Below are positions 72 to 20,484 of a stretch of 39,383 nt of DNA, piece by piece. The notes below the pieces were generated by a model, which saw nothing but the letters and a program-made list of their open reading frames with translations, was not told where the DNA came from and searched no databases. The position numbers and the translations under genes were made by a program. Origin of the DNA: an uncultured Bacilli bacterium. GTDB taxonomy: Bacteria; Bacillota_I; Bacilli_A; RF39; UBA660. The stretch lies in contig CALVYO010000001.1 of assembly GCA_944372275.1 (NCBI GenBank), forward strand, positions 1 to 39,383. The letters run 5' to 3'. Position 1 is the first letter of the stretch, and each line of letters starts with the position of its first letter.

Positions 72-74
72 AAA

Positions 75-2117
75 CTAATTCCCCCAATAACTTCCTACTT
101 TACTTGCGATATCATCGTAAGCAATTTTATTGTGTAATTCTTCTTTTATTGATGACAAAACATCAATAGATTCAAACATTTTCCCTTTTACTCTTTTATC
201 GATAAAGATGTATTCCATCGCCTCTATAACACCTTGATCTTTTGTATTTACTTTAGAAGCTTTTAAATCAACAGCAAATTTATATCCATCTTTAATTAAT
301 GTTTTAATTACTTTTTTATTTCTAGATAATTCTTCATATTGCGCTAAAACGATGATGTTATTCTTTGCATATTCATCGGCAAATAAGTTAAATATTTTAT
401 CTAATTTATTTGTTTTAGTATATAAACTTTCTGGTAAATAGAATATATATTTTTTATTAAAATCCGCATTCAACACATCTTTAACAATTTGGACTAATAA
501 TAAAGTTAATAATACTTCTATTTTATCTTCGGCAACAATACCATCAGAATAAGTTTTATCAACAATATAATCACTATATACTTTACTAAAATTAATATTA
601 TGGTTTAATTCAACTGCATAAATATTTTTAATTGATAAAGCATTATAATTTAATTCAAACAAAGTTGTTTCTAATTTTTCCAAAACTACTTTAATAGCAG
701 ATTTATAAGTCTTTTGAATTTTTAAAATCTTACTTATCATTTCATTGATTGTTTTTGGATCAACTTCAGTACCGATATATTTAATCATTTTATTTTTATA
801 AGTTTGTTTTTTTATTTTATTGTCATCGATAACTAAATATGTATGTTCTAAATGTATTAATAAAGTAAAGATATTAGTATATTTTTTTACCTTTTCACTA
901 TACTTATTATCAGTTCCTTTATATGATTTTAACATTTTTTCTGCAGATTCTTTTAAAGCAGTTTCAAGTCTTACATTCATATTGCGTCCATTATATTCAA
1001 CATTGATGTCGCCACAATAATTATAGTATTTACCATCGATATAAATCTTTAAAAAATTATCTTTAATAGTTGCTTCATTTGTTTTTAATGGTTCTCCATT
1101 ATTTAAAACATCGATTATCTCTTTTATTTCTTCCTCTTTCATAAACATTACTTTTTCAATAATATTTTTGAATTTTTTCTTTTTATTTTGTAACATTTCA
1201 AGTTTTAATTCAACTTCGTCAACTTTTTCTTCTTCATCTTTTTCCACAACTACTGGTTCTTCTTCAACTTCAATTTTTTTAGCATAAGCATTTTCGATTT
1301 CATCTTTATCTACTTGAATCATTCTAAAGTACATTGTTTTATCTAAATCTTCTGCTTCTAATGGTTTCAAATCGGTAATTGTTTCGTCAATATTTTCATC
1401 TTTAACTTCTTCAACTTTTGTAACTTTTACTTCATTATTTTCTTCTTTAATTTCATTTTTGATAACTTCTTTAGGTTTTAATTCTTCTTTAACATAATTA
1501 TCGTTAACTATTTTCTTATTATCTTTTTTTATTAACTTAATAATATTTTTACTAAATATTTTTAGTTTTTTCATTATATTTGCAACAATAATATCTAACT
1601 TACTCATCTTCTTTTCCTTCTTATTCTTTTTAAATGTTAAATTAACTAAATAAATAGTTATAATAATTGCTATTAAAACAATTGGATTAAAAATAGTTTT
1701 CTTAAATATTCCAAATGCTGGTAATATTTTTACAACTTTACCGACAATTTGTTCTTGTGTAATCGGATCATCTTTAGCATCGTTGGCATCACCTTTAGTA
1801 ACAAAAGTTCCTTGATATGCTTCAATAACACGATGGGTTATAAACTCACCATCTTGTTTAAAAGTAACAATATCATCTATTTTTATATTTCTTGAATATT
1901 TAACTACGATCCAATCTCCAGGTTCTACTGCTTCGCCCATACTACCAGTTTGAACTTCAAATACAGAATAACCAAAGAAACTTGAATAGTCATTACCTAA
2001 TAATTTTACTTGAATGTTGTTATAAATTGAAATCAATAAAACAACACCAAAAATAAAAATCAATATATTTAAGACAACATTAATAATTTTATCTGATATT
2101 TTTCCTTTATTTACCAT
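75..2117 (-). CDS. sipW: SipW-type (ER/archaeal-type) signal peptidase I fused to a ~500-aa cytoplasmic C-terminal extension
   Basis: 680-aa ORF. An N-terminal TM helix is followed by QTGSMGEAVEPGD (Ser box), FITHRV (His box) and TKGDANDAKD (Asp box), as in B. subtilis SipW. A second TM follows (IFNPIVLIAIIITIYLVNLTF). Then come a ~170-aa K/E-rich low-complexity linker and a ~340-aa globular region that ordinary SipW lacks. Confidence 0.85.
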   Translation of the reverse strand: MVNKGKISDKIINVVLNILIFIFGVVLLISIYNNIQVKLLGNDYSSFFGYSVFEVQTGSMGEAVEPGDWIVVKYSRNIKIDDIVTFKQDGEFITHRVIEAYQGTFVTKGDANDAKDDPITQEQIVGKVVKILPAFGIFKKTIFNPIVLIAIIITIYLVNLTFKKNKKEKKMSKLDIIVANIMKKLKIFSKNIIKLIKKDNKKIVNDNYVKEELKPKEVIKNEIKEENNEVKVTKVEEVKDENIDETITDLKPLEAEDLDKTMYFRMIQVDKDEIENAYAKKIEVEEEPVVVEKDEEEKVDEVELKLEMLQNKKKKFKNIIEKVMFMKEEEIKEIIDVLNNGEPLKTNEATIKDNFLKIYIDGKYYNYCGDINVEYNGRNMNVRLETALKESAEKMLKSYKGTDNKYSEKVKKYTNIFTLLIHLEHTYLVIDDNKIKKQTYKNKMIKYIGTEVDPKTINEMISKILKIQKTYKSAIKVVLEKLETTLFELNYNALSIKNIYAVELNHNINFSKVYSDYIVDKTYSDGIVAEDKIEVLLTLLLVQIVKDVLNADFNKKYIFYLPESLYTKTNKLDKIFNLFADEYAKNNIIVLAQYEELSRNKKVIKTLIKDGYKFAVDLKASKVNTKDQGVIEAMEYIFIDKRVKGKMFESIDVLSSIKEELHNKIAYDDIASKVGSYWGN

Positions 2118-2198
2118 ACTATATCAACCCTATCTTCGACTCTTTTCATACTATATATAATTTTACCATATTCGACATTTTTTTACAATACAAAAAAT

Positions 2199-2223
2199 CA
2201 AAAAAAAGAATGTTTATTCATTC
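2199..2223 (-). terminator. weak intrinsic terminator after the 534-aa gene
   Basis: Minus strand reads GAATG-aataaa-CATTC followed by TTTTTTTT. The stem is only 5 bp and the stop codon lies in the loop. Confidence 0.35.
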
Positions 2224-3818
2224 TCTTTAATTTCTTTAGCAATAATTTTTTCAACTTGAACCATAAACCAAATTTTTTCAACAGAAGTTTCACTTTTTTC
2301 AATTTTACTAACTCGTAATATTAACAATATTTTATTAAGTAGAGTTTTTAAACTATCTTCGTTTAAATCATCTTCAGTAATATTAATACTATTTAAACGG
2401 TATTTGTTACTAATTGTCTTAGCAATATTATTTTCTTTAAAAATTGGTACTCCTGTAATAATAATATTGGTTGGATTCATCGCAAACAAATCAAAATTAT
2501 CGCTATATTTAATAATTTCTTCATATTCTGTCATATTATAAATTTTTTGAATAGTTAATTTTTTAAAATAATCAAAACTATAATATAAATGCAAAACATC
2601 AGAAATAGTTAATGTTTCAGTTAATACCATCATTATTTTATCTTTAAAATATTCAATATCGTAAGTTTTATATAACTCATATAATTCATTAGCCTTCATA
2701 ACCGATTGCAGTTTTAATTGTTTTAAACCACTATCTGATCTAAATTCAAACAAACCGGGACGACCACTGAATATTTTTTTATTTAATTTTTCTAATTCAT
2801 TTTCTTTATTTTCAATTTCATCAATAATAGTTTTTAAACCTTTATACTCTTTCTTATCAGTAGCCAATAATTTTTCGTATTCATCTTTAAAATGTTTAAA
2901 AATAGGATAAAATTCTAAATAATTTTGATATTCTATAACATTCAACTTCAATTTTTCTAAAGCAGGTAATACTTTTTCAACATCTTTAACCTCAGGAATT
3001 AAAGATTCAAAAGCAGTTTGTCTTCCTTTACTATCATTTAAATATTGTTCGATATCTAATTCTTTAGTTTTTGCCATAGCAATTATATCACTGATAGTTT
3101 CTTTACTTGCTATATTTAAATCAATATAAGCATCTTGTAATTTTTCTAAACAATGAGCGTAATCCTTAATATTATTTTTATCCATAACTTCTTTTTGAAG
3201 TTCTAAAATATAATGATTTAATTTTCGACCATTCTTTTTAATTAATTTTCTAAAATTTAATTCAATATGGTGGATAAGTTCAGGATTAACCCAATATATT
3301 TGTTCAAAGATTTCTGAAACTTTATCATAACTATCTAATCTTCGATTACGAACTTCTAAAAAAGCAGTCATATATTCGTGAACATAACAAGTATAATTGA
3401 AATCATCACTTTCTAGATGGATACCTGCTTGTTCAAATTTATCTAAGAAACCATTTATAATTTCATTTAAAGATTTAAAATTAAATGTATCATAATTATT
3501 AATTTGATATAATAACTCATCAAAACACATTTTTTCTAAATATGTATTAGTTGGATTTAAAAGAAATTTAACATTTTCTAATTTTTCTAGCCTTTCTGTC
3601 AATTTATCTAAATCAGATGTTTCTTTTATTTCAAAACTTTTCGCTTTAGCAATTAAATAATTTCTTGTATTTGTTTGATATTCTTCATATTTTTTAATAA
3701 TTTCATCGATTGTTTCATTGAATTTTTTCTTATTTGTTTTCGTCTTAGTTGGCATAGTGGAAATCAATGTCTTTTTAGCCTCAATATCTTTATTAATAAA
3801 ATCTAAAAAATTATTCAT
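2214..3818 (-). CDS. hypothetical 534-aa soluble, K/E-rich, probably coiled-coil protein; no signal peptide or TM
   Basis: Long uninterrupted ORF. Its ATG overlaps the stop of the upstream 47-aa ORF (ATGAATAA). No recognisable catalytic motifs. Confidence 0.8.
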   Translation of the reverse strand: MNNFLDFINKDIEAKKTLISTMPTKTKTNKKKFNETIDEIIKKYEEYQTNTRNYLIAKAKSFEIKETSDLDKLTERLEKLENVKFLLNPTNTYLEKMCFDELLYQINNYDTFNFKSLNEIINGFLDKFEQAGIHLESDDFNYTCYVHEYMTAFLEVRNRRLDSYDKVSEIFEQIYWVNPELIHHIELNFRKLIKKNGRKLNHYILELQKEVMDKNNIKDYAHCLEKLQDAYIDLNIASKETISDIIAMAKTKELDIEQYLNDSKGRQTAFESLIPEVKDVEKVLPALEKLKLNVIEYQNYLEFYPIFKHFKDEYEKLLATDKKEYKGLKTIIDEIENKENELEKLNKKIFSGRPGLFEFRSDSGLKQLKLQSVMKANELYELYKTYDIEYFKDKIMMVLTETLTISDVLHLYYSFDYFKKLTIQKIYNMTEYEEIIKYSDNFDLFAMNPTNIIITGVPIFKENNIAKTISNKYRLNSINITEDDLNEDSLKTLLNKILLILRVSKIEKSETSVEKIWFMVQVEKIIAKEIKENE

Positions 3819-3954
3819 CTTCCGTTTCCTCTTCTATTTCTATTTTACTTTCAACTAAAAATTGCGAAAAATCTGTAATATTTTGATAAACTTCAATTAA
3901 TTCTTTTAAAGTCAATGCTGATAAATCGAAATCAACTTTTTCTTCCCTTTTCAT
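3811..3954 (-). CDS. small acidic protein, 47 aa (not in the ORF track)
   Basis: ATG at 3952-3954 preceded by AAAGGTGAG. Reads MKREEKVDFDLSALTLKELIEVYQNITDFSQFLVESKIEIEEETEDE. Its stop overlaps the start of the 534-aa gene, suggesting translational coupling. It fills the gap between D1 and that gene. Confidence 0.45.
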   Translation of the reverse strand: MKREEKVDFDLSALTLKELIEVYQNITDFSQFLVESKIEIEEETEDE

Positions 3955-3971: not shown

Positions 3972-5018
3972 CTATTCATATCCTTGTGTATCTTTAATAA
4001 AATTCAATGAAATATATATTTCAGCACCATCAGAATCTGTTTCCAAACTATCGATATCTTGTCCTTCAATCCAAACATAAACACGAGTTTTGGTAATACC
4101 GTCTGGAACTGTAAACAATGGTACTTCAAAATCTTCATCAGTCATCGTTTCTTGTAGTTCAAAATAATTTGGATCAAGATTTGGTGAACCTGATACTGTA
4201 TTAGCAACAAATATTGGTCCACCAGCCCTAGTAAATGCATAAGTTGGAAATTCTTGGCCATTTACTAAATTAACGCCATACTTTGTTGCTCTTTCAATTG
4301 ATAAATCTGAATGATCTTTGCTATTTGGCTCAAAAATAATCGAATAACAATTATTATTACAAGATATATTCTGAACTTCAGTAGCAGAAGCATCTTTAGC
4401 AACAGACCCCATTTTAACAATTCCAACTCGTGAAGAATTTAATAAACCGACCATTTCTTCATCAGGATTTTCTTCAATTGTAATTGAAGTTCCATAATCA
4501 AAATACAAATTATCACTAGTTGGTGATCCTGAATCATTTTTAAAAAACAAATCAAATGCTATATAGTTATTGTACTCATTTCTTCCACCTTCATGCATTA
4601 AATTAGTCCGTACATAACCATTTTCTTTATCTTTATTAGGATACCTAACACCGCTACTTGCAAACATATTAAATATTGGACTATCGTGATTAGTTATTCC
4701 ATTTGAAGAAATAGGAACTAAACCTCCACCAGCCCATTGACTAGTATTATTAGGATAAGTATATCTTAATCCTCTAATAAGTTCATCAGCTGATATAACT
4801 ATATCAGTATCAAAATTAATGCCATCTAATGAGATTGATAATCCCGTATTCTTTTTAACTGTCATTGTAAATGTTTTTACTCTAACATTTAAATTGGTTG
4901 AAAACCACGCATATGTTGAAAAAATAAGCAAAATACCTATTATTACCATAATAGTAATCGTTACTTTTTTGTTAGTTTTTTCAATTATTCTTTTTTTTAA
5001 AGTATTTTGTTTTTTCAT
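3972..5018 (-). CDS. secreted TasA/camelysin-like fibre-subunit paralog, class D (D1, 348 aa)
   Basis: Basic N-terminus, TM helix, then FSTYAWFSTN. Shares GLSISLDG, GGLVPISS, YIAFDLFFKNDSG, FEPNS, PTYAF and ITKTRVYVWIEGQDID blocks with the B and C proteins. RBS is GGTGGTGA. Confidence 0.8.
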   Translation of the reverse strand: MKKQNTLKKRIIEKTNKKVTITIMVIIGILLIFSTYAWFSTNLNVRVKTFTMTVKKNTGLSISLDGINFDTDIVISADELIRGLRYTYPNNTSQWAGGGLVPISSNGITNHDSPIFNMFASSGVRYPNKDKENGYVRTNLMHEGGRNEYNNYIAFDLFFKNDSGSPTSDNLYFDYGTSITIEENPDEEMVGLLNSSRVGIVKMGSVAKDASATEVQNISCNNNCYSIIFEPNSKDHSDLSIERATKYGVNLVNGQEFPTYAFTRAGGPIFVANTVSGSPNLDPNYFELQETMTDEDFEVPLFTVPDGITKTRVYVWIEGQDIDSLETDSDGAEIYISLNFIKDTQGYE

Positions 5019-5079
5019 TTTTCACCACCTAATTAATAAAGGAAGAGTAATTAACCAAATTACTCTTCTTTATTATCAA

Positions 5080-6402
5080 TTATTCACCATTTGTTGGAGT
5101 AATATCTGTACTTGGTCCATCATATCCTGGAATATCTGCTTCAGTATATCTTTCTTTAGTGAATCCAAAATTAACTGTAATTTTCTTTCCTAATGATGCA
5201 AAATCATAGTTATCTACATCTTGACCTTCAATCCAAATGTAAACTCTTACTTTTGTAATACTATTTGGCGCTAAAGTCATAAATTGTGGACGATCTTTAC
5301 CAGCTATATTTTTCATTGTATCAGTAAAGTATCCAATTCCAGCATCTTCATCATAAGTCATATCAACTAAATTATAAGTACTTCTATCATCATCATTATA
5401 ATAAGTTGTATAATCGATTGTTGATTTAGTATAACCATTGTATGCTGCGCCATCATAAATATTAATATTATCAGCAATAGCAATTTCATTACTTATTGCA
5501 TATGTTGGATATGCTTGATTTAATTCAACAGTAGCACAATGACTACCTGCATTATATGAAGCAGCATCATTAACATCATCACCATCTGCTTTTCTTGTTA
5601 AACAAGATTTATCATACCAATTAACAGCATTTTGCACATGCACAGAATCATTTGGTTCCCAAATTCTTGCTTCTCTACAAATACCGGTTACTTGAACTTG
5701 TCCATCAGCAGCAGGAACATCAGAACAAGTAATTTTTGTAATGTTACTTACAGATTCAGTATCTGCTTTAACACGACCAATTTGTGCGAATGCAACCCTT
5801 ACAGAATTTTCAATACCTGCTTTTTCTTCGCCATCAGCAGCAACAGTAACTGCAGAATTAGTAGTTAAATAAATTGCTTCTTCGTTTAATGGATTATTTT
5901 GAGTATAATATTCATTACCTGATAAGTTTTTAATGAATAAATCGAATGCAACATAGCCATTACCTTCAACATATTCAGCAGAACCACTACCAACTTGTGT
6001 AGTATGATTATCAACTTGACTAGCTAATAATCTATAACCACCTGTAACAGCAGTCAAACTTCCTTTTTCATATAATTTCATTCTTGAAGAATTTTTATCC
6101 ATATCACCTACAGATGACATTGGAATTAATCCTTCATCTTCGCCATCTAACCATTGGTTAGCATGTCCAGTATAAGCATCAGCATTTCTAGCATCTAAAG
6201 TATATTTCCATTTTTGACCATCCATTGATAGGTATAAGCCTTCAGTTGTTGCTATATTAACGCTAAATTCAGCTACATTAACAGTTTTCATACCTATAAA
6301 CCAAGCATAGGTTGAAACTGATAATAAGATAGCACATAAGCAACACATAGCAACTAAATTTCTAACTTTTTTGCTTTTTTTAGCATTATATTTTTTTGCC
6401 AT
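5080..6402 (-). CDS. secreted TasA/camelysin-like fibre-subunit paralog, class C (C1, 440 aa)
   Basis: N-terminus K-rich, TM, then SVSTYAWFIGMKTVNV. C-terminus reads ITKVRVYIWIEGQDVDNYDFASLGKKITVNFGFTKE. Four conserved Cys. RBS is AGGAGGAA. Closest paralog is C2. Confidence 0.85.
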   Translation of the reverse strand: MAKKYNAKKSKKVRNLVAMCCLCAILLSVSTYAWFIGMKTVNVAEFSVNIATTEGLYLSMDGQKWKYTLDARNADAYTGHANQWLDGEDEGLIPMSSVGDMDKNSSRMKLYEKGSLTAVTGGYRLLASQVDNHTTQVGSGSAEYVEGNGYVAFDLFIKNLSGNEYYTQNNPLNEEAIYLTTNSAVTVAADGEEKAGIENSVRVAFAQIGRVKADTESVSNITKITCSDVPAADGQVQVTGICREARIWEPNDSVHVQNAVNWYDKSCLTRKADGDDVNDAASYNAGSHCATVELNQAYPTYAISNEIAIADNINIYDGAAYNGYTKSTIDYTTYYNDDDRSTYNLVDMTYDEDAGIGYFTDTMKNIAGKDRPQFMTLAPNSITKVRVYIWIEGQDVDNYDFASLGKKITVNFGFTKERYTEADIPGYDGPSTDITPTNGE

Positions 6403-7730: not shown

Positions 7731-8429
7731 TTAATAATTTTCAACATACTCTGAATTAAAGTCCATATAAACAGAAAATTCACCACCTAAGATATCGTCT
7801 GTACATTCAGGATCACTACCTTCAACCCAAATGACAATTGTGTATTTATCGATATCTCCTGGTTTAAAATTATCAACCTTATTACGGGCAACTAAACTTT
7901 CTTCTAAAAATGCAGTCGTATCTGGCTCATTGGCTCCATTTTTAGCAGCTTTAGCATAAGTAATTTGGTCTCCATTACGATAAACTCTAATTCTAACAGC
8001 ATCGTCGATTTCTTTGATAACATCTGTGATAAAAAGTTCTCTCCAATAGCTAGTAATCTCATTTCCAATATTCTCAACAAAAAATGTGTAAGCAAGGTAT
8101 TCTGTACCGTTATGTGACCCCCCGTCACTTTCATTTAAATCATTAGGTAACCAATTACCAGATATATTTGTAAATGTCTTAGGTGAAGCGATTGATAATT
8201 CTGCTCGATACACTTTATAGTCTGGATCATCGTAAATGACAATACCTCTACTAAAGTATAAGTTTTTATCAAGTGTTATACTAAAATTACCACTATTATA
8301 AATAATACCTATAACCACATACAAAAGAATAAATAGGAAAAGGATTACTAATAAAGCTATTCGAAAGATTTTTTTGAGTTTTTTTTCAGTTTTGATTTTC
8401 TTTGAATTAAGCTTAATCTTGTTTTCCAT
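7731..8429 (-). CDS. membrane-anchored TasA-like protein, class A (A1, 232 aa), first gene of cassette 1
   Basis: K-rich N-terminus and a long TM (IFRIALLVILFLFILLYVVIGIIY), but no (S/T)-(Y/L)-(A/S) motif. C-terminus YTIVIWVEGSDPECTDDILGGEFSVYMDF resembles the B/C/D C-terminal strand motif. RBS is GAAGGGG. Confidence 0.8.
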   Translation of the reverse strand: MENKIKLNSKKIKTEKKLKKIFRIALLVILFLFILLYVVIGIIYNSGNFSITLDKNLYFSRGIVIYDDPDYKVYRAELSIASPKTFTNISGNWLPNDLNESDGGSHNGTEYLAYTFFVENIGNEITSYWRELFITDVIKEIDDAVRIRVYRNGDQITYAKAAKNGANEPDTTAFLEESLVARNKVDNFKPGDIDKYTIVIWVEGSDPECTDDILGGEFSVYMDFNSEYVENY

Positions 8430-8496: not shown

Positions 8497-8547
8497 ATTA
8501 TAGCATACTAATTTTTTTTGTCAATATAATATGTCGATAATTGTCGA
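8497..8547 (-). promoter_or_regulatory. near-consensus sigma-A promoter of cassette 1 plus two upstream TGTCGA direct repeats
   Basis: Minus strand reads TTGACA (8519-8524), 16 nt, TATAAT (8497-8502). In plus-strand reading, TGTCGA occurs at 8532-8537 and 8542-8547. These are 10 bp apart and 13 bp from the -35. The geometry is identical upstream of A2. Confidence 0.6.
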
Positions 8548-8733: not shown

Positions 8734-9345
8734 ATGAGAACAAAATTTAAAATTTTGATGGTAATTAGTTCTTTGGCTTTCACACTAAGTCTTATGAGTA
8801 ATACTTACTCAAGATATGTTGCTGATGTTGATGGCGATATTGAATTATTATTCGCAAAATGGCAAATACTTGTTAATGATAGTGATATCACTAATAACAC
8901 TACAACTTCTATTAATATAACTCCAGTTATGGAAGAAAATATTAATGTTGCTGATAATACCATTGCTCCTTCTTCTAAAGGTTATTTTGATATCGAAGTT
9001 GATCCATCTAATGTTGGTGTTTCTTTCAACTATAACATTACTTTAGATGTTGTTAATGAAAATCTACCTGATTTAATAATAAGTAAGTACGCTATATTAG
9101 ATAGTGATTATATCGAAGGTGATCAAATAACTACAACCACTATTTTAAATAATATTATAAATGGAACTGTTGATTATACTGATACCTTAGAACCATTTAA
9201 AATTAGAGTTTACTTTGAATGGTATGAAGGTGCTGATGAAGTTATGGATGATACAACTGATACTAACATTGGTTATGAAGCTACTTTAAATGATACTTCA
9301 TTATTAGTAAATGCAACAATAAGTTTCGAACAAAAAATTAATTAA
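8734..9345 (+). CDS. small secreted TasA/camelysin-like protein (203 aa)
   Basis: Signal peptide ends in MSNTYSRYVAD. Contains IAPSSKGYFDIEV, typical of the first strands of camelysin/TasA-type domains. C-terminus reads IRVYFEWYEGADEVMDDTTDTNIG...NATISFEQ. RBS is AAGAAGGG. Confidence 0.8.
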   Translation: MRTKFKILMVISSLAFTLSLMSNTYSRYVADVDGDIELLFAKWQILVNDSDITNNTTTSINITPVMEENINVADNTIAPSSKGYFDIEVDPSNVGVSFNYNITLDVVNENLPDLIISKYAILDSDYIEGDQITTTTILNNIINGTVDYTDTLEPFKIRVYFEWYEGADEVMDDTTDTNIGYEATLNDTSLLVNATISFEQKIN

Positions 9346-9389: not shown

Positions 9390-10226
9390 TTAACTATTCT
9401 TTTCATTAAAATATAAATTTTTAATTCTATCTAAAGCATCTTTAATATATTGACAACTAATCTTATATTGTTCAAAAACAATTTCAAATCCATTTTCATC
9501 ATCACATACAAAATTCCAATAATCTTTACCAATCAATAATTCTTCATCACAAAAAAATTGTTGTACTCTTTCTTGTTTCCAAATTTTATCTTCACCATAT
9601 TTATTGTATGCTGTAGCAAAAAATATATTTATTTTATCGTCTGATTCCAATAATTTATTTTTTAACAAAAAATATTCTTGTAATAATTCACTTTTTTCTG
9701 CCTTAGCCTTTTTATTATCTAAATCACCACCTGATTTTAATTCTATTACATAATGTTCCTTAGTTGAAGGGTTATAAAAATAATTATCTGTTTCGTGAGT
9801 TTTCATATAACTTTCTAAATTTTTAGGTTGGACACAATAAAAGTTGTTATAATCTTCTACACTAGGTTTAACATGTTTATCATATTCAGTAAGCAAATAA
9901 TCAATGTGTTGAGTCTGCTGAGGTAATAAATATGATTCTATTTTTCCCCTTACTTCATAAGATAAATTAGCAATAGAATTTCCTATATTTTCCAACACTT
10001 TACCAAAACTAGAATCAAATGATCTAACAAAGGCTGAATAAAACATAAATTCTTTACCTAATTCAGCAATAAAAACATTATTTTTTTTAGAATTAATAAC
10101 ACCGTCCGGATTATTAACCTCAGAAGCATATCTAAGTTCGAAGCCTTCAGCAAAATTTTTTATTCCTAAATCAACTATCTGTTTTATTGCAGTAATTTTA
10201 TGCTCTTTTAATAATTCTTCGGTCAT
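9390..10226 (-). CDS. candidate type II restriction endonuclease (278 aa)
   Basis: Starts 3 nt after the methyltransferase stop, with RBS AAGGAGG. Contains a PD-(D/E)xK-like arrangement (..THETDNYFY..EHYVIELKSGGD). Specificity unknown. Confidence 0.55.
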   Translation of the reverse strand: MTEELLKEHKITAIKQIVDLGIKNFAEGFELRYASEVNNPDGVINSKKNNVFIAELGKEFMFYSAFVRSFDSSFGKVLENIGNSIANLSYEVRGKIESYLLPQQTQHIDYLLTEYDKHVKPSVEDYNNFYCVQPKNLESYMKTHETDNYFYNPSTKEHYVIELKSGGDLDNKKAKAEKSELLQEYFLLKNKLLESDDKINIFFATAYNKYGEDKIWKQERVQQFFCDEELLIGKDYWNFVCDDENGFEIVFEQYKISCQYIKDALDRIKNLYFNEKNS

Positions 10227-10228
10227 TT

Positions 10229-11362
10229 CTAATCCTCCTTGTAGTTAGTAATTATTAAATGTTCAACATTTTTATTATTTCTATTTTGAAAACTTACCAA
10301 ATATTTTTTGTCAAATGATGATATATAAAATCCAGCATCTTTATATAAATTATAAATAAATTCTGTATTTTTAATTATTAACATAAATTTTGCTTTTGTT
10401 TTTTTTAAATAATTAAACAACCTTATTTGATCATTTTTATTAAAATCATTTTGTGCATAAGTTGAAAATTCAGTATCATAAGGTGGATCTAAAAACATAA
10501 AATCTTCTTTTGTTAAATTTATTTTATTACAAAATTCTTCAAAATCTAAATTGTATATTTCAGTTTTTTTCATATAATTTTTTATTTTTTCAGATGAAAT
10601 ATAATCTATTTTCTTTTTAAAATCTTTCTTATTATAACTTATGCCACCATAAGGAACATTAAATTTTCCTTGTTTATTATACCTAAACATTGATGCATAA
10701 CAATACTCTCTAATAAAATAAAAAATGGCTGATGAAAATTCTTTATCAATATCTAATTCATTTCTATAATTATACAAATATCTAAAGTGCATATAAAATG
10801 CACTTTTTAATGCTGATTCTAAATTATCTAATATATTTTTTTCAGTAAGTTTTCCTTTTTCTTTTTCAATTTTATTCATTCGACAAATTTTAGAATAAAA
10901 ATTTTTTTGGATTTCGTGAATAAAATTGTCAATTCTTATATTAAAACTTTCAGTTAATACACCATTAAATTCACTTGAATGTTGAATAACAAAATCACAA
11001 ATTTTATCATTATATTTAATTTTTTTTATTTTATCGATAGATGTTTCTTTACAAAATTTTTTATATAAGTTTAGTAATTCTTTTGCATTATTATCTATAA
11101 TTTTTTCAAGTAACATCCAATTATGATATAGTTCATTTAATTTATTAATAAATTTTTTATTATTATCTTTTATATATTTATATAAATTTATTAATTCGTC
11201 AGACTTATCATTTATAATTGAATTATTACAATTTAATGCAAAGTATACTGCCCCACCGCCAACAAAAGGTTCAACATATCTTGTAAAATTTTTCGGAATA
11301 TTTTCTAAAATAACAGATAATTCTTTTTCTTTGCCACCAGCCCATTTAATAAATGATTTCAT
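10229..11362 (-). CDS. Dam-class (alpha-group) N6-adenine DNA methyltransferase
   Basis: FIKWAGGKEKE and EPFVGGGAVYF (AdoMet motif I region) lie near the N-terminus, and FLDPPYD (motif IV) near the C-terminus. The start is trimmed to the ATG at 11362 (MKSFIKWAGGK) behind GAGGTG. The ORF-track start at 11404 has no RBS. Confidence 0.85.
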   Translation of the reverse strand: MKSFIKWAGGKEKELSVILENIPKNFTRYVEPFVGGGAVYFALNCNNSIINDKSDELINLYKYIKDNNKKFINKLNELYHNWMLLEKIIDNNAKELLNLYKKFCKETSIDKIKKIKYNDKICDFVIQHSSEFNGVLTESFNIRIDNFIHEIQKNFYSKICRMNKIEKEKGKLTEKNILDNLESALKSAFYMHFRYLYNYRNELDIDKEFSSAIFYFIREYCYASMFRYNKQGKFNVPYGGISYNKKDFKKKIDYISSEKIKNYMKKTEIYNLDFEEFCNKINLTKEDFMFLDPPYDTEFSTYAQNDFNKNDQIRLFNYLKKTKAKFMLIIKNTEFIYNLYKDAGFYISSFDKKYLVSFQNRNNKNVEHLIITNYKED

Positions 11363-11394
11363 TTTAAACACCTCATTTTTTGTGTTACATAAAT

Positions 11395-11423
11395 ATACTA
11401 TCATACAAACATATGTATGTCAA
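11395..11423 (-). promoter_or_regulatory. promoter of the R-M operon
   Basis: Minus strand reads TTGACA (11418-11423), 17 nt, TAGTAT (11395-11400). Confidence 0.5.
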
Positions 11424-11457: not shown

Positions 11458-11997
11458 TTATTCTTCAACATCAACTTCATCGCCATATTTAATTTCAACG
11501 ATTAATGCATATAATTCATATATAAATATTAAGAAACAAGGTACTAATACGATGAATAAAAATCCCCATTGTGATTCTATTATATTTAATACTGTTCCGA
11601 TATCATTATATACTTTAGTAGGACGACCAATTAAATATTTTAATGAATATGGATCACCATTTTCTAGAGTAATTACTTGATTATCAACATTAACTTCTCC
11701 TACTTTACCAATGTTGATGTCAGCTGTTTTAGACATTTGATCTACTTTATAAACAAACACTGTTTCGCCTACTTGCAAATTTTCTGGTGCCGCTTCTTCA
11801 ACTAATACTAAATCACCCTTTTGAAAATCCTCATGGCTTACTTTATCTTTTAAAATTACTAATGAAGTTTCACCAAATACGGTTACACGATAGTCATTAA
11901 AGTTTAATAATAAAACTGTCATAACTAAAGCGAAAGAAAAATAAATTACTCCAAATGTTACGATTAATACTTTTTTTATTGTTTTTAATGCTTTCAT
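11458..11997 (-). CDS. SipW-family paralog lacking the catalytic Ser and His boxes (pseudo-signal-peptidase, ~179 aa)
   Basis: Same architecture as SipW: N-terminal TM, beta-rich ectodomain, C-terminal TM (FLFIVLVPCFLIFIYELYALIV). Where SipW has SGSMEP this protein has VILKDKVSHED. Where SipW has THR(I/V) it has VFVYKV. The QKGDLVLV and ENGD blocks are retained. I prefer the start at 11997 (GGAGGT RBS); 12015 is the alternative. Confidence 0.65.
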   Translation of the reverse strand: MKALKTIKKVLIVTFGVIYFSFALVMTVLLLNFNDYRVTVFGETSLVILKDKVSHEDFQKGDLVLVEEAAPENLQVGETVFVYKVDQMSKTADINIGKVGEVNVDNQVITLENGDPYSLKYLIGRPTKVYNDIGTVLNIIESQWGFLFIVLVPCFLIFIYELYALIVEIKYGDEVDVEE

Positions 11998-12005
11998 AAT
12001 ACCTC

Positions 12006-12854
12006 CTAATTGCATTCTATTTCTAATAAAGAAAATTCATTTACATCATAAGTTGCTGATTTATCTACTTTATAAAATATGTAACTTAAATTATCTTTAC
12101 TAGGAATTTCTAAAATTATTTCATTAATATAACCATTTTGCATATTATAATTGGTTATATTATCTTTATCGATTCTTAATTTGTTAGCATCCCAATTAAT
12201 TTTTACACATTTTTTATCATCGGATGAATTTGTTATTGTTAGTCTATCATAATTATTAAAACTTTGATAAGTCATATCTGTTTTTTCAACTAATGTTTTA
12301 TCTTTTTTTAAAATAAATGTTCCGGTTAAAGTCTTTTCATATGGCTCAATACTTACTACTTCGATATCTGCAGTTACATTATCAGTTGCTATATCAAAAT
12401 AGATATCAGCAGTAGATTTTTGAATTACCCAATTATATCCCTTTGATTCGCAAGTTGCTTTATCAAAATCTGTCGTATCTACGCCATCATTTTTATTATT
12501 AATACAAGTATTATAACTTGATAATGTCCCATAATAAGTATTAGAATCAGTACCATTTATTTTGCAATCAGTACCATCTGATAATGTACAAGTAACTTTA
12601 TATTTTATGTCATAGTCTGTTATAGCTGCCTCATTTATTGAATTTGTTAAATTGAAATGAACGCTCGTTCCATCCCAAACATTATTGACATTTTTAACAT
12701 TATCACCTAGTTTATCACTACTTAAATAAAATCCTTGAGAATTTAAGTAGTAGTTCCATACTGAATTAGAAATGTACTTTGCTAAAGTTAAACCATTGGT
12801 TATTAATAATACTACAGTTAAAAGAACTACACCTATAATTAAATATTTTCGCAT
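12006..12854 (-). CDS. secreted protein with SipW-type signal (282 aa), Cys-rich
   Basis: Signal MRKYLIIGVVLLTVVLLITNGLTLAKYISN. Its ATG abuts the stop of the upstream gene (TAAATG) behind AGGTGA. Asn/Thr-rich mature part. Confidence 0.75.
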   Translation of the reverse strand: MRKYLIIGVVLLTVVLLITNGLTLAKYISNSVWNYYLNSQGFYLSSDKLGDNVKNVNNVWDGTSVHFNLTNSINEAAITDYDIKYKVTCTLSDGTDCKINGTDSNTYYGTLSSYNTCINNKNDGVDTTDFDKATCESKGYNWVIQKSTADIYFDIATDNVTADIEVVSIEPYEKTLTGTFILKKDKTLVEKTDMTYQSFNNYDRLTITNSSDDKKCVKINWDANKLRIDKDNITNYNMQNGYINEIILEIPSKDNLSYIFYKVDKSATYDVNEFSLLEIECN

Positions 12855-13391
12855 TTAATCACCTAACTTCTGCCAACTATTAATTTCTACATCGATAAAA
12901 TCAGCTAAATTTGTATATTCTAAAGAATTATATTCACTTGGAAATGTCAATTTTATTTTATAATTATCTAATATTTCTGTATTATGACTTAGTGTCTGAA
13001 CACTTGAATTACATACCAATTCATCAAATTCGTTTCGCGAATAAGTTTCATCACAATTCATTATTAATTCTTCTGATTCGCCTTCTTTATATAATTCAAT
13101 AGTTAAAGGCATAAAATGATATGTTTTTATAGTTATTTGATATTCAACTGTTACATTACTTAATTTTTCTTCTTTATTTGTAACAGAAAACATATATTCT
13201 TCGACACTTCCTGGATTTAAATTATTTAAGTTTAATTCTAAATGATCTAATTGTTTACTTTCGAAAACAAATTTAGCTATTTTTTGATCGACATTAATAT
13301 TACTATCGGAATAGAAGATAGAATATGTAACGCCAGTACCTAAAAATATTGCTATTAAAATGAATAGAATTATCAATACTTTATGTTTCAT
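12855..13391 (-). CDS. small secreted TasA/camelysin-like protein (178 aa)
   Basis: Signal ends in GTGVTYSIFYSD. LNPGSVEEYMFSVTN matches the l.PG....f.v.N strand typical of camelysin/TasA domains. Ends in EINSWQ. RBS is AGGAGGAG. Confidence 0.8.
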   Translation of the reverse strand: MKHKVLIILFILIAIFLGTGVTYSIFYSDSNINVDQKIAKFVFESKQLDHLELNLNNLNPGSVEEYMFSVTNKEEKLSNVTVEYQITIKTYHFMPLTIELYKEGESEELIMNCDETYSRNEFDELVCNSSVQTLSHNTEILDNYKIKLTFPSEYNSLEYTNLADFIDVEINSWQKLGD

Positions 13392-16819: not shown

Positions 16820-16821
16820 CT

Positions 16822-16894
16822 CTTTTTAATTTGCCATTTATAGAGCTGGCTTCACTCACTTTTTTAATTGCCATTTAAGGCTGGCTTCACCTGC
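16822..16894. repeat. two tandem ~35-38 bp direct repeats plus a third truncated start
   Basis: TTTTTAATTTGCCATTTATAGAGCTGGCTTCAC(tcac) then TTTTTAAT-TGCCATTTA-AGGCTGGCTTCAC(ctgc). TTTTTTAATGC then restarts at 16895 and runs into the perfect palindrome AATGCTACT-T-AGTAGCATT (16901-16919). Confidence 0.6.
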
Positions 16895-17003
16895 TTTTTT
16901 AATGCTACTTAGTAGCATTATTATTATATGCTAAAAAGCATAATATAATCGCTTACGCAATAATAATATATCACAATAAAAATAAAATGTCTATATTTTA
17001 TCG

Positions 17004-17032
17004 AAAAAAATATCACACAATTTGTGTGATAT
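17004..17032 (-). terminator. strong intrinsic terminator after C2
   Basis: Minus strand reads ATATCACACA-aatt-TGTGTGATAT followed by TTTTTTT, 5 nt after the C2 stop. Confidence 0.8.
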
Positions 17033-17036
17033 TAAA

Positions 17037-18368
17037 TTATTCATTTGTTGTTGGAACATCTGGTCCATCATAATCTGGGAAGTCAGATTGATTATATCTT
17101 TCCTTAGTGAATCCAAAGTTAATTGTAATTTTCTGTCCTAATGATGCGAAATCATAGTTATCGATATCTTGTCCTTCAATCCAAATATATACTCTTAATT
17201 TAGTAATACTGTTTGGAGCTAAAGTCATAAATTGTGGACGATCTTTACCAGCAACATTTTTCATTGTATCAGTAAAGTATCCAGTTCTTGTTGTTGCATC
17301 ATAAGTCATATCGATTAATTTCATATCAGCTTTTCCGCCTACTCCAGCAGAAGCAGCATTATATTCTACTAATGTTTTAGTATTAGCAGCATATTTATTA
17401 TAAGCTAAACCATCATAAACATTTACGTTATCAGCAATAACAATTTCACGACTAATTGCATATGTTGGATATGCAGTAGTTGTATTTAATGTAGCACAAG
17501 ATGTACCTTCTGAATAAGAACCTGCAGCATTAACATCTGCGCCTGTTCTTTCTAAACAAGATTCTTTATACCAATTTAAAGCATTTTGAACGTGTTTAGT
17601 ATCATTTGGTTCCCAAATAGCAGCATTACGGCAAATACCTGTAACGTGTTGTGGATTATTAACATCATCTTCACTATCAGCACAAGTCATACTTGTAACT
17701 AAATCTTGAATATCTTCATCATCAGTATCTAAAGCTGCACTAACGCGTCCTAATTGTACAAATCCAACTCTTACTGAGTTTTCAATACCAGCATTACCTT
17801 CACCATCTAAGGCAACAGTAACTGCTGAATTAGTATTTAAGTAAATTGCTTCTTCGTTTAAAACATTATCTTCTGGATAATATGCTTCACCAGATAAGTT
17901 TTTAACGAATAAGTCGAATGCTATATAACCATTACCTTCTTCGTATTCGATACCACCAGCATTTTGTGTAACGTTATTGTCAACACGACTTGCTAATAAT
18001 CTATAACCACCTGTAACAGCAGTTAAACTTCCTTTTTCATATAATTTCATTCTTGAAGATGCTTCATCCATCTCACCAATTGAAGACATTGGAATTAATC
18101 CTTCATTTGTTCCATCTAACCATTGGTTAGCATGGTTTGTATAAGCTGGTGTATTTTTAGCATCTAGAGTGTAACGCCAATCAGCTCCATCCATTGATAA
18201 ATATAACCCTTCAGTAGTAGCAATATTAATATCAAATTCAGTAACATTAACAGTTTTCATACCTATAAACCAAGCATAGGTTGAAACTGATAATAAAATA
18301 GCACATAAAGCACAAATTGAAACTAGATTTTTAATTTTTTTACTTTTCTTTAATTTTCTATTTTTCAT
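17037..18368 (-). CDS. secreted TasA/camelysin-like fibre-subunit paralog, class C (C2, 443 aa)
   Basis: SVSTYAWFIGMKTVNV, then ITKLRVYIWIEGQDIDNYDFASLGQKITINFGFTKE. Collinear with C1 along its full length. RBS is AGGAGGT. Confidence 0.85.
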   Translation of the reverse strand: MKNRKLKKSKKIKNLVSICALCAILLSVSTYAWFIGMKTVNVTEFDINIATTEGLYLSMDGADWRYTLDAKNTPAYTNHANQWLDGTNEGLIPMSSIGEMDEASSRMKLYEKGSLTAVTGGYRLLASRVDNNVTQNAGGIEYEEGNGYIAFDLFVKNLSGEAYYPEDNVLNEEAIYLNTNSAVTVALDGEGNAGIENSVRVGFVQLGRVSAALDTDDEDIQDLVTSMTCADSEDDVNNPQHVTGICRNAAIWEPNDTKHVQNALNWYKESCLERTGADVNAAGSYSEGTSCATLNTTTAYPTYAISREIVIADNVNVYDGLAYNKYAANTKTLVEYNAASAGVGGKADMKLIDMTYDATTRTGYFTDTMKNVAGKDRPQFMTLAPNSITKLRVYIWIEGQDIDNYDFASLGQKITINFGFTKERYNQSDFPDYDGPDVPTTNE

Positions 18369-18378
18369 CTTTTACCTC

Positions 18379-19776
18379 CTAATTAATTGTCCATATATCA
18401 TCTACTCGCGTAGCTGTTTTTTTAACTCCACCATCTTCGAATGTAAATTTCGTCATCCAATTTGGTAAAGTAAATAATTTATTGTCATTATCATAAGTAA
18501 TTTTTGAATTTGAAATGTTGGTTATTTCACCCGTATTGATATAAGATACTGTTTGGTCTCTTACGACATCATCTGGTAATTCTGGATCACCATCATAATC
18601 AATATCTTCCCCATAGAATCTTTCTTTAGTAAAGCCGAATGATACAGATATTTTTCTGCCTAAAGATGCAAAATCATAATTATCAACATCTTGTCCTTCT
18701 AAGTAAATATAAATTCTTACTTTAGTAATACTATTAGGAGCAAGTGTTATAAATTCTGGTCTATCGACACCTTCATTCATTTTATCGGTATCAGTGAAGT
18801 AATCTACTTTATATAGTTTACCTGCTTTATATGTTGTCGATATCGATTTAGTATAACCATTATATTCTTTTCCATCATACACATCGACATTATCATCATA
18901 ATCGATAACACCACTTACTGCATATGTTGGATAGTAAACACCATCTTTAATGGTATTGCAAGTTCCTTTAAAAGAATTAGGATTGGTTATATCATCACCG
19001 ATTCTTTTACGACATGAAGTAGTATACCAACTAATAGCGTTGGTAACGTGTTTAGTATCGTTTGGTTCCCATATTGTAGCATCACGATCAGCACATATTC
19101 CTGTAACATTGCTATTAGATTTACAAGTAATGCCTGTAATTACACTAATATCATCTTCAACTGCAACTACTCGGCCAATTTGGGCGAATGCTACTCTTAC
19201 AGAATTTTCGATACCTGCTTTTATTTCTCCCCCATCTTCTGCGGCTTTTACCTCGGAAGCAGGATCCAAATAAATAGCTTCCTCATTTTTTTTGTTAAGT
19301 TCTGGATAATAAGCAATTCCAGATTTATTTTTAATAAATAAGTCGAATACTACATATCCATCAACTTCTTTAGCACCGGTGTTTTCTACTCTAGCAGCCA
19401 TTACACGATAACCACCAGGTGATGCTGTAAAACTTCCTTTTTCATACATAATAAGTCTTGATGAGCCAGTATCAATCTTACCAACTGATGAAACAGGAAC
19501 TAATCCTTTGCCACCCCAACTGTTAGTGTTTCCTTTATAACTTGCAGTTTTATAATTGTCTTCATTAATCGTTACGGTCGTTTCCCAATTTTCACCATCT
19601 AACGATAGTAATAAAGTATCAATCGCTGCAATATGAACATCAAAACTAGAAACATTAACAACCTTCATACCAATGAACCAAGCATAAGTAGAAACTATTA
19701 GGATTATCGTACATAAAACAGCAGCAACAAGTAATTTTTTTACTTTTGTTTCATGTTTCTTTTTTCTTCTTTTCAT
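18379..19776 (-). CDS. secreted TasA/camelysin-like fibre-subunit paralog, class B (B2, 465 aa), with extra C-terminal ~50 aa
   Basis: IVSTYAWFIGMKVVNV, then ITKVRIYIYLEGQDVDNYDFASLGRKISVSFGFTKE. A tail follows (..SYINTGEITNISNSKITYDNDNKLFTLPNWMTKFTFEDGGVKKTATRVDDIWTIN) that B1 lacks. Confidence 0.85.
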   Translation of the reverse strand: MKRRKKKHETKVKKLLVAAVLCTIILIVSTYAWFIGMKVVNVSSFDVHIAAIDTLLLSLDGENWETTVTINEDNYKTASYKGNTNSWGGKGLVPVSSVGKIDTGSSRLIMYEKGSFTASPGGYRVMAARVENTGAKEVDGYVVFDLFIKNKSGIAYYPELNKKNEEAIYLDPASEVKAAEDGGEIKAGIENSVRVAFAQIGRVVAVEDDISVITGITCKSNSNVTGICADRDATIWEPNDTKHVTNAISWYTTSCRKRIGDDITNPNSFKGTCNTIKDGVYYPTYAVSGVIDYDDNVDVYDGKEYNGYTKSISTTYKAGKLYKVDYFTDTDKMNEGVDRPEFITLAPNSITKVRIYIYLEGQDVDNYDFASLGRKISVSFGFTKERFYGEDIDYDGDPELPDDVVRDQTVSYINTGEITNISNSKITYDNDNKLFTLPNWMTKFTFEDGGVKKTATRVDDIWTIN

Positions 19777-19791
19777 AATCCCTTCTTTCCC

Positions 19792-20484
19792 TTATTCTGC
19801 TTCGATTGGTTTAAAATTCATACGAACTTTAAATTCTCCACCTAATATATTGTCGGTACAATCAGGATCTTCGCCTTCAATCCATAAAACGATTGTATAC
19901 TTATCCACAGCATTAGGTTCAAAAGAATCAACATCATTACTCATAATTACTTCATCAGTTAAGAAAGGAACTGTATTAGGTTCAGCATTTCCTTCACTTG
20001 ACAATTTAGCATAAGTTTGATATTCTCCGTTCTTATAAATTCTAACTCTGATGGCAGCATCAACATTTTTGATAACATCATCGATTAAAACTTCACTTGT
20101 ATAGCCAGCAACTTCATCTCCTGTATTTTCAATATAAAATGTATATATCAAATAACTATCGCCATTATGTGAACCACCTTCGTAATCTTCGATATCTTCA
20201 GGTAGCCAAATTTCCTTAATGCTATCGAATGTTTTAGGTGCTTTAGCGAGTAGTTCTGTTCGATATACTTTATATTGAAAATCATCATAGATAATTATGC
20301 CATTATTCAAATAAAGATTTTTATCGAGTGTTATGCTAAAATTACCACTATTATAAATAATACCTATTACAAAATATAAAATAAGTAAAAGTAGAAGTAA
20401 TAAGAGCACGGCAAGTTTGAATCTTTTTTTTAGTTTTTTCTCTTTTTTTAATTTATCGGTAGTTTTAGTAAATTTACTTTCCAT
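19792..20484 (-). CDS. membrane-anchored TasA-like protein, class A (A2, 230 aa), first gene of cassette 2
   Basis: Collinear with A1: ..VIGIIYNSGNFSITLDKNLY.., GGSHNG, AIRVRIYKNG, KYTIVLWIEGEDPDCTDNILGGEFKVRMNF. Confidence 0.8.
   Translation of the reverse strand: MESKFTKTTDKLKKEKKLKKRFKLAVLLLLLLLLILYFVIGIIYNSGNFSITLDKNLYLNNGIIIYDDFQYKVYRTELLAKAPKTFDSIKEIWLPEDIEDYEGGSHNGDSYLIYTFYIENTGDEVAGYTSEVLIDDVIKNVDAAIRVRIYKNGEYQTYAKLSSEGNAEPNTVPFLTDEVIMSNDVDSFEPNAVDKYTIVLWIEGEDPDCTDNILGGEFKVRMNFKPIEAE

Follow-up and report, generated by a model that had tools for sequence, protein, structure and literature searches.

In Bacillus subtilis (tapA-sipW-tasA) and Bacillus cereus (sipW-tasA-capP(bc1280)-calY), a dedicated signal peptidase of the endoplasmic reticulum (ER)/archaeal type is encoded together with its substrates, which carry an aromatic residue at P2′ and include TasA-family jelly-roll proteins, and no sortase is involved. 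One report on TasA indicates that Phe at P2′ makes this protein a SipW substrate and a poor LepB substrate (PMC10269814). Additionally, multi-component loci comprising major, minor, tip and anchor proteins, a signal peptidase and a peptidase accessory have been described for AbpX and the haloarchaeal tafi (PMC11821415; bioRxiv 10.64898/2026.01.04.697558), for Clostridium perfringens Bsa (PMC11580942) and for B. cereus TasA/CalY/CapP. In the case of C. perfringens, the polymers of the bsa operon (sipW-bsaA-bsaB-bsaC) are membrane-anchored and sortase-independent, and donor-strand exchange was proposed for them (PMC11580942). The present analysis concerns positions 75-20484 of a 39,383-nucleotide stretch of DNA (contig CALVYO010000001.1, hereafter the window) from an uncultured Bacilli bacterium of the RF39 lineage, in which an initial annotation had placed a SipW-dependent, TasA/camelysin-like fibre or matrix system and had set it against the three-gene, one-subunit paradigm of B. 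subtilis. That contrast was overstated, because the TasA superfamily already includes multi-component loci of this organisation.

The region 75-20484 comprises 16 minus-strand genes and one plus-strand gene (Table 1). The coordinates given initially for the open reading frames (ORFs) were all verified, but the tally of 17 minus-strand genes was corrected to 16, one of which is the 47-aa ORF s47, and that of 12 secreted or membrane proteins to 11. The inventory consists of two A-C-B cassettes, the D protein, three small secreted proteins (s178, s203 and s282), a 1096-aa protein (L1096), a fused active SipW (SipWfus) and a dead SipW-like protein (dSipW); U534 and s47 are conserved cytoplasmic components that were absent from the initial annotation, which likewise had not recognised the restriction-modification insertion at 9390-11404 or the rearranged gene order. 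With roughly even confidence, this region is regarded here as encoding a system, found lineage-wide and independent of sortase, for the export and probable polymerisation of surface proteins (fibre, pilus or matrix scaffold) in uncultured low-GC gut Bacilli. One true TasA relative, five proteins of a large unnamed family and a dedicated SipW are found together and, therefore, an undescribed surface fibre or matrix appears the most likely explanation. What would be new, judging from sequences and structural models, is a SipW/TasA-type surface system whose main products form a large unannotated, structurally unmatched family, accompanied by extra cytoplasmic components, in an uncultured gut lineage. 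The cell surfaces of uncultured Bacilli, Mollicutes and Tenericutes are poorly known, and the link of B, C and D to SipW, a TasA homologue and fixed partners places roughly a dozen genes per genome that are annotated as 'hypothetical' in a testable functional context. No paper linking RF39 with SipW or TasA was found in the literature.

The locus shares with the B. subtilis and B. cereus operons all the features named above, s178 with its predicted jelly-roll being the TasA-family protein here, and the B. cereus system likewise has more than one subunit and an accessory factor. It differs from both in that the presumed strongly expressed B, C and A proteins (230-465 aa) are not detectably TasA-like, in that ~13 genes are present instead of 3-5, in the fusion of SipW to a cytoplasmic domain and the presence of a putative dead paralogue, and in U534 and s47; homologues of TapA, SinR and SinI were not detected. 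The locus logic also resembles that of AbpX, AbpA and tafi (TafA/C/E), whose accessory is sometimes fused to the peptidase (PMC11821415), and AbpX-type fibrils have in common with the proteins described here acidic subunits and a mature N-terminus that is disordered in monomer models. However, the accessory of AbpX and tafi is DUF5305 or a peptidase with ten transmembrane (TM) segments, whereas dSipW and the C-terminal domain of SipWfus match no Pfam family, DUF5305 included; moreover, the major-subunit candidates fell outside the recognised TasA superfamily in every test run, and the host belongs to an uncultured gut Bacilli lineage. The bsa operon is comparable as a SipW-linked operon for several secreted proteins, one of them large. 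Secretion of BsaC, a protein with a von Willebrand factor A (vWA) domain, depends on type IV pilus genes, and neither such a domain nor such genes were found in the present locus; the other two proteins, BsaA and BsaB, are remotely homologous to TasA and are locked by isopeptide bonds.

Table 1. Genes and expression signals of the region, with positions in the window; aa, amino acids; the arrow marks the predicted signal junction.
Feature	Positions	Strand	Description
SipWfus	75..2117	-	680 aa; active-type ER/archaeal signal peptidase (residues ~1-165) and conserved ~340-aa cytoplasmic domain, joined by an acidic low-complexity linker
U534	2214..3818	-	534-aa cytoplasmic, largely helical protein; core cluster member
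s47	3811..3954	-	47-aa acidic ORF, MK.EEKVDFDLS.LSL.ELIEVY..I..F..FL; overlaps the U534 start by 8 nt
D	3972..5018	-	348-aa STYAWF protein; divergent B/C paralogue; one per locus in most loci
Terminator-like hairpin	5042..5068	-	12 nt after the B1 stop; 11-bp stem, T-rich tail
B1	5080..6402	-	440-aa STYAWF protein, presumed major secreted subunit
C1	6469..7710	-	413-aa STYAWF protein; constant partner of B; 51% identical to B1
A1	7731..8429	-	232 aa; long basic tail and very hydrophobic helix; TM-like segment 16-51 (Kyte-Doolittle, KD, 3.35)
Sigma-70 promoter upstream of A1	8497..8524	-	TTGACA-16-TATAAT with extended -10 TG; 12/12, the only one in 1-20000
s203	8734..9345	+	divergent small secreted protein; NTYS↓RY junction; C-terminal RVYFEWYEGxD...FEQ block
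Restriction-modification (R-M) pair, not part of the system	9390..11404	-	RE_TdeIII (Pfam E 1.4e-44) and MethyltransfD12 (N6-adenine; E 1.5e-37)
dSipW	11458..12015	-	185-aa two-TM protein of SipW-like topology without catalytic residues
s282	12006..12854	-	282-aa secreted Cys-containing protein; LTLA↓KY junction
s178	12855..13391	-	divergent TasA/camelysin-family jelly-roll protein (by profile and model); GVTYS↓IF junction
L1096	13401..16691	-	large secreted protein; N-terminal GLUG/beta-helix-like region and two OmpL47-type immunoglobulin (Ig)-like domains
Terminator-like hairpin	17009..17033	-	4 nt after the B2 stop; 11-bp stem, TTTTT
B2	17037..18368	-	443-aa B1 paralogue
C2	18379..19776	-	465-aa C1 paralogue; ~60-aa C-terminal extension
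A2	19792..20484	-	230-aa A1 paralogue
Sigma-70 promoter upstream of A2	20537..20564	-	12/12, extended -10

Synteny and genomic setting

In 73 related loci, taken from species-representative metagenome-assembled genomes (MAGs), the components form one co-directional operon in the order A-C-B(-C-B...)-D-s47-U534-L1096-s178-s282-dSipW-SipWfus, with s203 divergent upstream of A. The succession of C and B was counted 63 times in the related loci, that of A and C 58 times, of D and U534 53 times (in 53 loci) and of B and D 47 times, followed by L1096 and s178 (38), s178 and s282 (34) and s282 and dSipW (33, which are all the loci that reach that far). B and C are adjacent and in places occur as two to three tandem pairs. 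The lineage of the window, to which L001, L003, L004, L008 and L015 also belong, is rearranged, with a duplicated A-C-B cassette and the block from L1096 to dSipW both placed upstream of s203; the gene order of the window is a rearranged, partly duplicated form of a single operon. The duplication into A1-C1-B1 and A2-C2-B2 was evident in all-against-all BLASTP, with 68% identity between B1 and B2, 67% between C1 and C2 and 57% between A1 and A2. In the same comparison, B and C were ~50% identical and D was 25-29% identical to B and C (E 1e-26 to 1e-33).

The association extends to distant lineages. There, B/C/D proteins of 27-32% identity lie in compact clusters, in which a U534-like protein, SipW, a second SipW, a small 'NTYAWF' protein, an A-like protein, the B/C/D-like protein and a small 'TTFAWF' protein succeed one another in this order; the A-like protein is 44-45% identical, which makes A the best-conserved component. 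A metagenome scan with the A profile also found lineages (A 38-46% identical) that combine one to three SipW genes with s178, s282, s203, A and B/C/D, often together with U534 and L1096. Several distant family members lie on contigs too short to inform. The synteny in the 73 genome loci and in these distant metagenomic lineages supports the initial proposal of one SipW-associated, sortase-independent, multi-protein secretion/surface system.

The absence of sortase, LPXTG, prepilin peptidase, secretion ATPase and usher, noted initially, was likewise in agreement with Pfam and motif scans. No sortase match and no LPXTG-like motif occurred in any protein of the region, no type IV pilin class III signal (G↓F/M-T-L-I-E) was present in the first 45 residues of the region's proteins, and no Pfam match to a prepilin peptidase, a secretion/assembly ATPase or an usher was obtained among the window proteins. 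The region's proteins lack the hallmarks of sortase-assembled pili and of type IV/Tad pili.

The nearest relatives of the window are MAG contigs labelled uncultured Bacilli, Mollicutes or Tenericutes from gut samples of human, primate, chicken, rabbit and ruminant. The B/C/D family, with 2632 matches, none of them named or carrying a Pfam domain (1784 clusters at 50% identity, 306 at E ≤ 1e-30), was found almost only in MAGs with these labels, from human and animal guts and rumen. Ordinary chromosomal genes, including ftsK, eno, murD, lexA and rnc, occupy the right side of the window, whose GC content is ~25%. There is no sign of a mobile-element origin, since B1 had no tblastn match in phage and plasmid collections. 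The A-C-B genes reach 30-33% GC versus 22-25%, and GC at third codon positions (GC3) is uniformly low (0.10-0.17). Because of this uniformity, horizontal transfer was rejected as the cause of the higher GC of A-C-B, which is attributed to amino-acid composition and not to a foreign origin.

Secreted proteins and the TasA family

A TasA-family profile was built from 42 PF12389 proteins and the same tests were applied to every component, with PF12389 family counts scored at E ≤ 1. PF12389 matched 30 of the 65 members of the s178 family (best 1e-5), and the hhalign probability of s178 against the TasA family was 94% (E 1.2e-7), or 65% with signal peptides removed. The s178 copy of the window alone does not reach E 0.1 for PF12389; PF12389 is present in its orthologue P0391, which is named 'TasA family protein' at NCBI. 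In addition, the AlphaFold2 (AF2) model of s178 (predicted local distance difference test, pLDDT, 82) retrieved jelly-roll beta-sandwiches with Foldseek, TasA itself not being in the top 50. By profile and predicted structure, s178 is a divergent TasA/camelysin-family member.

The same tests gave a different outcome for the remaining secreted proteins. PF12389 matched none of 67 diverse B/C/D members, the hhalign probability to the TasA family was 0.26%, and the B/C/D profile retrieved neither TasA nor any other match from PDB sequences. The best Foldseek matches of the B1 model had E 0.47 in PDB and 0.06 in BFVD, with none at E ≤ 1e-3. For the A family, PF12389 was absent from all 46 members, hhalign to TasA gave 0.4% and the profile had no match in PDB sequences. 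Much of the hhalign signal between families sits in the signal peptides, as illustrated by s203 versus s178, which falls from 85% to <1% without them. Likewise, s203 (PF12389 in 0 of 13 members) reached 13% against TasA through the signal peptide only, and s282 (0 of 27) reached 8%, both dropping to at most 1% as mature proteins. Pfam and NCBIfam scans of all window proteins returned no match for A, B, C, D, U534, s203 or s282. Among the three small proteins that had been described as TasA-like, this likeness therefore holds for s178 and was lost for s203 and s282, which have no TasA signal without the signal peptide, and the TasA/camelysin likeness claimed for B/C/D and A was not upheld (hhalign 0.3-0.4%). 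Thus, s178 is filed in the TasA family; B/C/D and A are not.

The N-terminal hallmark noted initially, which consists of a basic N-terminus, a helix and a TasA-type junction with an aromatic P2′, is indeed common to the secreted proteins. B1, B2, C1, C2 and D begin with a basic tail followed by a hydrophobic helix and STYAWF, and TYAWF is at least 90% conserved in the 67 B/C/D members, which are 25-57% identical to B1. The other junctions are those of s178, s203 and s282 (Table 1), SLA↓RY in the 1096-aa protein and possibly SG↓NF in A, so that the general form is small-x-small followed by x-aromatic, e.g., STYA↓WF. NCBIfam TIGR04088 had no match among the window proteins at E ≤ 0.1. The C-terminal hallmark was also recovered, the block (V/I)x(V/I)W(I/V)EGxD...G...xFxF being found in B1, B2, C1, D, A1, A2 and s203, with the variant RIYIYLEGQD in C2, whose ~60-aa C-terminal extension occurs in P0059 and P0112 as well. 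It is through this part of the protein that A is connected with B/C/D, since the hhalign match between them (87%, or 92% on the mature parts) covers the last ~50 columns and A shares only the WxEGxDxxC...GGE block.

A possible but doubtful explanation is that B, C, D and A themselves belong to the jelly-rolls of the TasA/camelysin superfamily and contain large insertions, the locus then being an expanded TasA system that forms a heteropolymeric donor-strand fibre. A genuine TasA-family gene does lie within the same operon, the junction class is common to TasA and s178, and hhalign pairs GITYSxF with STYAWF. However, the hhalign probabilities given above are negligible, and the PF12389 test that fails throughout B/C/D and A succeeds for nearly half of the s178 family. 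The best local match between B/C/D and TasA, which falls exactly on the last strand (G-KITVNFGFTKE vs QGNSIKLQFSFEATQ), speaks for this explanation, although it is insignificant. Foldseek searches with the B1 model returned neither TasA, AbpA and threads nor any jelly-roll at E<0.1; with the s178 model, jelly-rolls were readily retrieved. The length of 350-465 aa also exceeds the 100-350 aa window that defines the TasA-superfamily dataset. The distant small NTYAWF proteins, with their colinear weak matches to TasA, s203 and B/C/D, speak for the jelly-roll explanation, but all bridging comparisons remain below 20% without signal peptides. Consequently, a bridge from B/C/D to TasA via s203 and the NTYAWF proteins, for which the values were below 10%, was rejected as colinear but insignificant, and none of the hints of a very remote common origin (the last-strand match and the small NTYAWF proteins) is significant.

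These small secreted proteins of the distant clusters (200-237 aa) combine an N(T/S)(Y/F)AW(F/W) junction with the motif LYPGM..N.G and with the C-terminal block W.YE.G.D; examples are found at L076:2405-3121, L120:1308-2003, L125:6974-7687 and L131:634-1242. Judging from these motifs, they may represent intermediate stages in evolution that connect TasA-like proteins with B/C/D, the profile comparisons being not significant.

In the 67 B/C/D members, residues S59, S96, D154, R202, E249, R386, E392, D395 and D397 are invariant, three of these nine being located in the C-terminal E-G-Q-D-x-D block, and an EPN..H motif is near-invariant. Four cysteines (C226, C242, C267 and C289 in B1 numbering) are conserved in the closer B/C homologues (at least 62% identical). 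On these sequence grounds, the cysteines may form putative disulfides and the acidic E-G-Q-D-x-D block a putative Ca2+ site. The invariant polar residues and the EPN..H motif could form an active or metal-binding site and, together with the conserved cysteines and a fold unlike that of any known filament subunit, they would suit secreted enzymes or ligand-binding proteins (glycan- or protein-degrading, or binding in a Ca-dependent manner) that use SipW-specific export and do not polymerise. This is nevertheless very improbable, given that no enzyme family was matched in Pfam, NCBIfam, PDB sequences or Foldseek, and that the fixed gene set, the tandem C-B pairs, the anchor-like paralogue, the tip-like giant and the TasA-family partner are typical of appendage loci.

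The AF2 model of B1 (pLDDT 85; predicted template modelling score, pTM, 0.85) is mostly beta, with residues 30-37 disordered (pLDDT <50) and the first core strand starting at residue 43. The predicted new N-terminus WFIGMKTVN, which is identical in B and C and very conserved, is thus disordered in the model. The mature secreted proteins are acidic (pI 4.0-4.8; Asp+Glu 13-18%), and sequence conservation across many species lies at 62-69%. This acidity and such unusually high conservation, which suggests tight packing constraints, would also be expected if B/C/D and A were two-dimensional S-layer-like coat proteins or membrane-tethered envelope proteins, with the helix kept in some of them, and if SipW and s178 were a separate small TasA-type fibre within the same operon. 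In this unlikely arrangement, the placement of A-C-B as one unit behind a very strong (consensus) promoter would be accounted for, as would the long, very hydrophobic helix of A without an A-x-A-like junction, and s178, s282 and dSipW (with SipWfus in the canonical order) do form their own sub-block beside L1096. On the other hand, SLH, CWB2 and other wall-binding Pfam domains were found neither in the window proteins nor among the 25 most frequent Pfam families of the 67 B/C/D members, and an invariant TYAWF right after the helix is more like a processing site than a plain anchor. Furthermore, B/C/D are still linked to SipW in the compact clusters L076 and L077, where no gene matched the s178 profile.

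Signal peptidases, cytoplasmic partners and proposed assembly

The assignment of the fused SipW in the initial annotation was confirmed. SipWfus matches the Pfam family Peptidase_S24 above the cut-off (E 1.3e-5; 25.3 bits vs 23.3), its profile matches SEC11C (E 5e-6) and SEC11A (E 2e-5) in PDB, and Ser59 (GSM), His95 (THR) and Asp110 (GDAN) are invariant in nine orthologues. Two TM segments (7-40 and 134-164) flank the catalytic domain and, because of this topology, the C-terminal domain must be cytoplasmic. This domain had no Pfam or PDB sequence match, and a degenerate EAL-like C-terminus (GYKFAVD...IFIDK) was considered and discarded, as nine orthologous C-domains gave no EAL match in Pfam at E ≤ 5.

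The dead SipW of the initial annotation has the SipW topology and no catalytic residues, but its profile similarity to SipW is weak: TIGR02228 was matched below the cut-off (E 1.4e-4; 21.8 bits vs 51.85), and hhalign against SipWfus gave 29% probability (E 6e-4), colinear over 129 columns. No conserved Ser or His stands at the catalytic positions in 26 orthologues and, for this reason, dSipW resembles SipW but is probably not an active member. Its sequence is plausibly that of an inactive SipW paralogue, probably serving as a pseudo-peptidase or accessory subunit.

In several loci, past the left window edge, SipWfus is followed at a distance of ~2.7 kb by a second SipW-like gene of ordinary length (e.g., L003:18995-19549 and L015:19005-19568), whose product is 27-35% identical to the SipWfus peptidase domain, and distant clusters have two or three SipW genes.

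The arrangement resembles the eukaryotic signal peptidase complex (SPC) in the SEC11A/SEC11C match of the catalytic domain, in the combination of an active peptidase with a non-catalytic two-TM partner bearing an extracytoplasmic beta domain, and in a cytoplasmic module, this likeness being architectural only. The same SPC analogy was drawn in the AbpX paper for DUF5305 fusions (bioRxiv 10.64898/2026.01.04.697558). The combination of a fused and a dead peptidase with cytoplasmic partners may illustrate how accessory subunits are gained by signal peptidases of the ER type in prokaryotes.

U534 lacks TM segments, and searches of Pfam, NCBIfam and PDB returned nothing for it; a paralogous relationship with the SipWfus cytoplasmic domain was rejected (hhalign 0.5%). 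The s47 protein, unannotated, has a pI of 4.1 and no signal peptide. It was found by tblastn in 58 related loci and, in those inspected, it lies directly upstream of U534, including in rearranged gene orders. As regards the 1096-aa protein, initially described as a beta-helix protein, the GLUG and IgA1-protease-like signals are present but weak (profile match to 3n6z, 'putative IgA1 protease', E 1e-3; GLUG motif in 1 of 29 orthologues), and besides these it has Ig-like domains (NCBIfam OmpL47-type domain twice, E 4.6e-11).

If the region does encode a polymerising surface system, SipW would cut off the signal peptides, and B and C would be abundant co-subunits that co-polymerise, each subunit being joined to the next through the new N-terminus WFIGMKTVN as a donor strand, in the manner of TasA, AbpX and BsaA. 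A would be a membrane-proximal acceptor or anchor, or else an initiator, while D, s178, s203 and s282 would be minor or adaptor subunits and L1096 a tip protein or adhesin. The roles suggested initially (A as base, D as nucleator and the 1096-aa protein as adhesin) and donor-strand polymerisation are likewise conjectural. In addition, dSipW would serve as a peptidase accessory subunit, and the SipWfus cytoplasmic domain, U534 and s47 would constitute a cytoplasmic regulatory/targeting module. A more specific proposal, put forward tentatively, is that A and B/C/D are SipW-processed polymer subunits of a new structural class, which has no relationship to TasA or only a very distant one and builds an unseen appendage, with assembly carried out by a new signal-peptidase complex (active SipW with its cytoplasmic domain, dead paralogue, U534 and s47). 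If the product is a fibre or matrix, it would be a candidate organelle for adhesion or aggregation in uncultured gut bacteria, and the SipW/TasA principle would then apply also to subunits that are much larger than TasA and unlike it in sequence.

Several observations weigh against such a polymerising surface system. Cleavage, polymerisation and surface location are all deduced from sequence, and promoters and terminators were assigned only by their match to a consensus. A and B/C/D have no detectable sequence or Foldseek likeness to TasA or to any solved filament subunit; after signal-peptide removal, only two profile links remain, that of A with B/C/D (92%) and that of s178 with TasA (65%). 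Four conserved cysteines, as present in B/C, are unusual for TasA-type subunits. A passive model of secretion and self-assembly does not account for U534, s47 and the SipW C-domain as large conserved partners in the cytoplasm. Finally, the co-occurrence of the cassette with SipW expected in the initial annotation holds in related and distant loci, but no SipW gene is present in the available DNA of L074 and of L153/L158.

In L074 (9650-19021), a B/C/D gene is followed by a cytoplasmic 307-aa protein and by a >2299-aa surface protein, the contig ending inside the giant gene. The same contig carries the sporulation genes SpoVG, SipL and YunB, with no SipW in 9.6 kb upstream.

Expression signals and neighbouring genes

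Each A-C-B cassette is bounded by a promoter preceding A and a terminator-like hairpin following B (Table 1), the promoters of A1 and A2 being the only two 12/12 sigma-70 matches with an extended -10. In the related loci, a hairpin with a T-run was found at 28-44% of the junctions after a B/C-type gene versus 0-6% elsewhere. This sequence layout fits A, C and B as abundant products, with the genes downstream of them as accessories made at a lower level. Just upstream of the -35 hexamer in both A promoters, the element TCGACAAT-N3-TCGACA was identified (8525-8550 and 20565-20590, minus strand). The duplication of the cassette included its regulatory region, in which this element is a possible binding site of a regulator. 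Additionally, an 18-nt direct repeat, GTGTCAAT(C/T)ATTGTAAAA, occurs twice in the A1/s203 intergenic region (8587-8604 and 8628-8645, minus strand), 41 nt apart and nowhere else in the window; by its position, it may represent an operator or part of the s203 promoter region.

Both s203, on the opposite strand upstream of A, and s282, following s178, are conserved in position. The type II R-M pair between dSipW and s203 is a strain-variable insertion, present in L002 and absent from L001, L003, L004 and L015, which are otherwise ~80-90% identical and have s203 directly after dSipW. On the other side of the locus, a staphylococcal-nuclease homologue (20638-21228, plus strand) with a signal peptide and a C-terminal TM anchor is divergent from A2 and is the same neighbour in L008; an extracellular nuclease thus adjoins the putative matrix locus. 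Further away, at 31388-33854 (minus strand), an unrelated ATP-binding cassette (ABC) exporter with an N-terminal C39-type peptidase motif (bacteriocin/peptide type) is followed by a small membrane protein.

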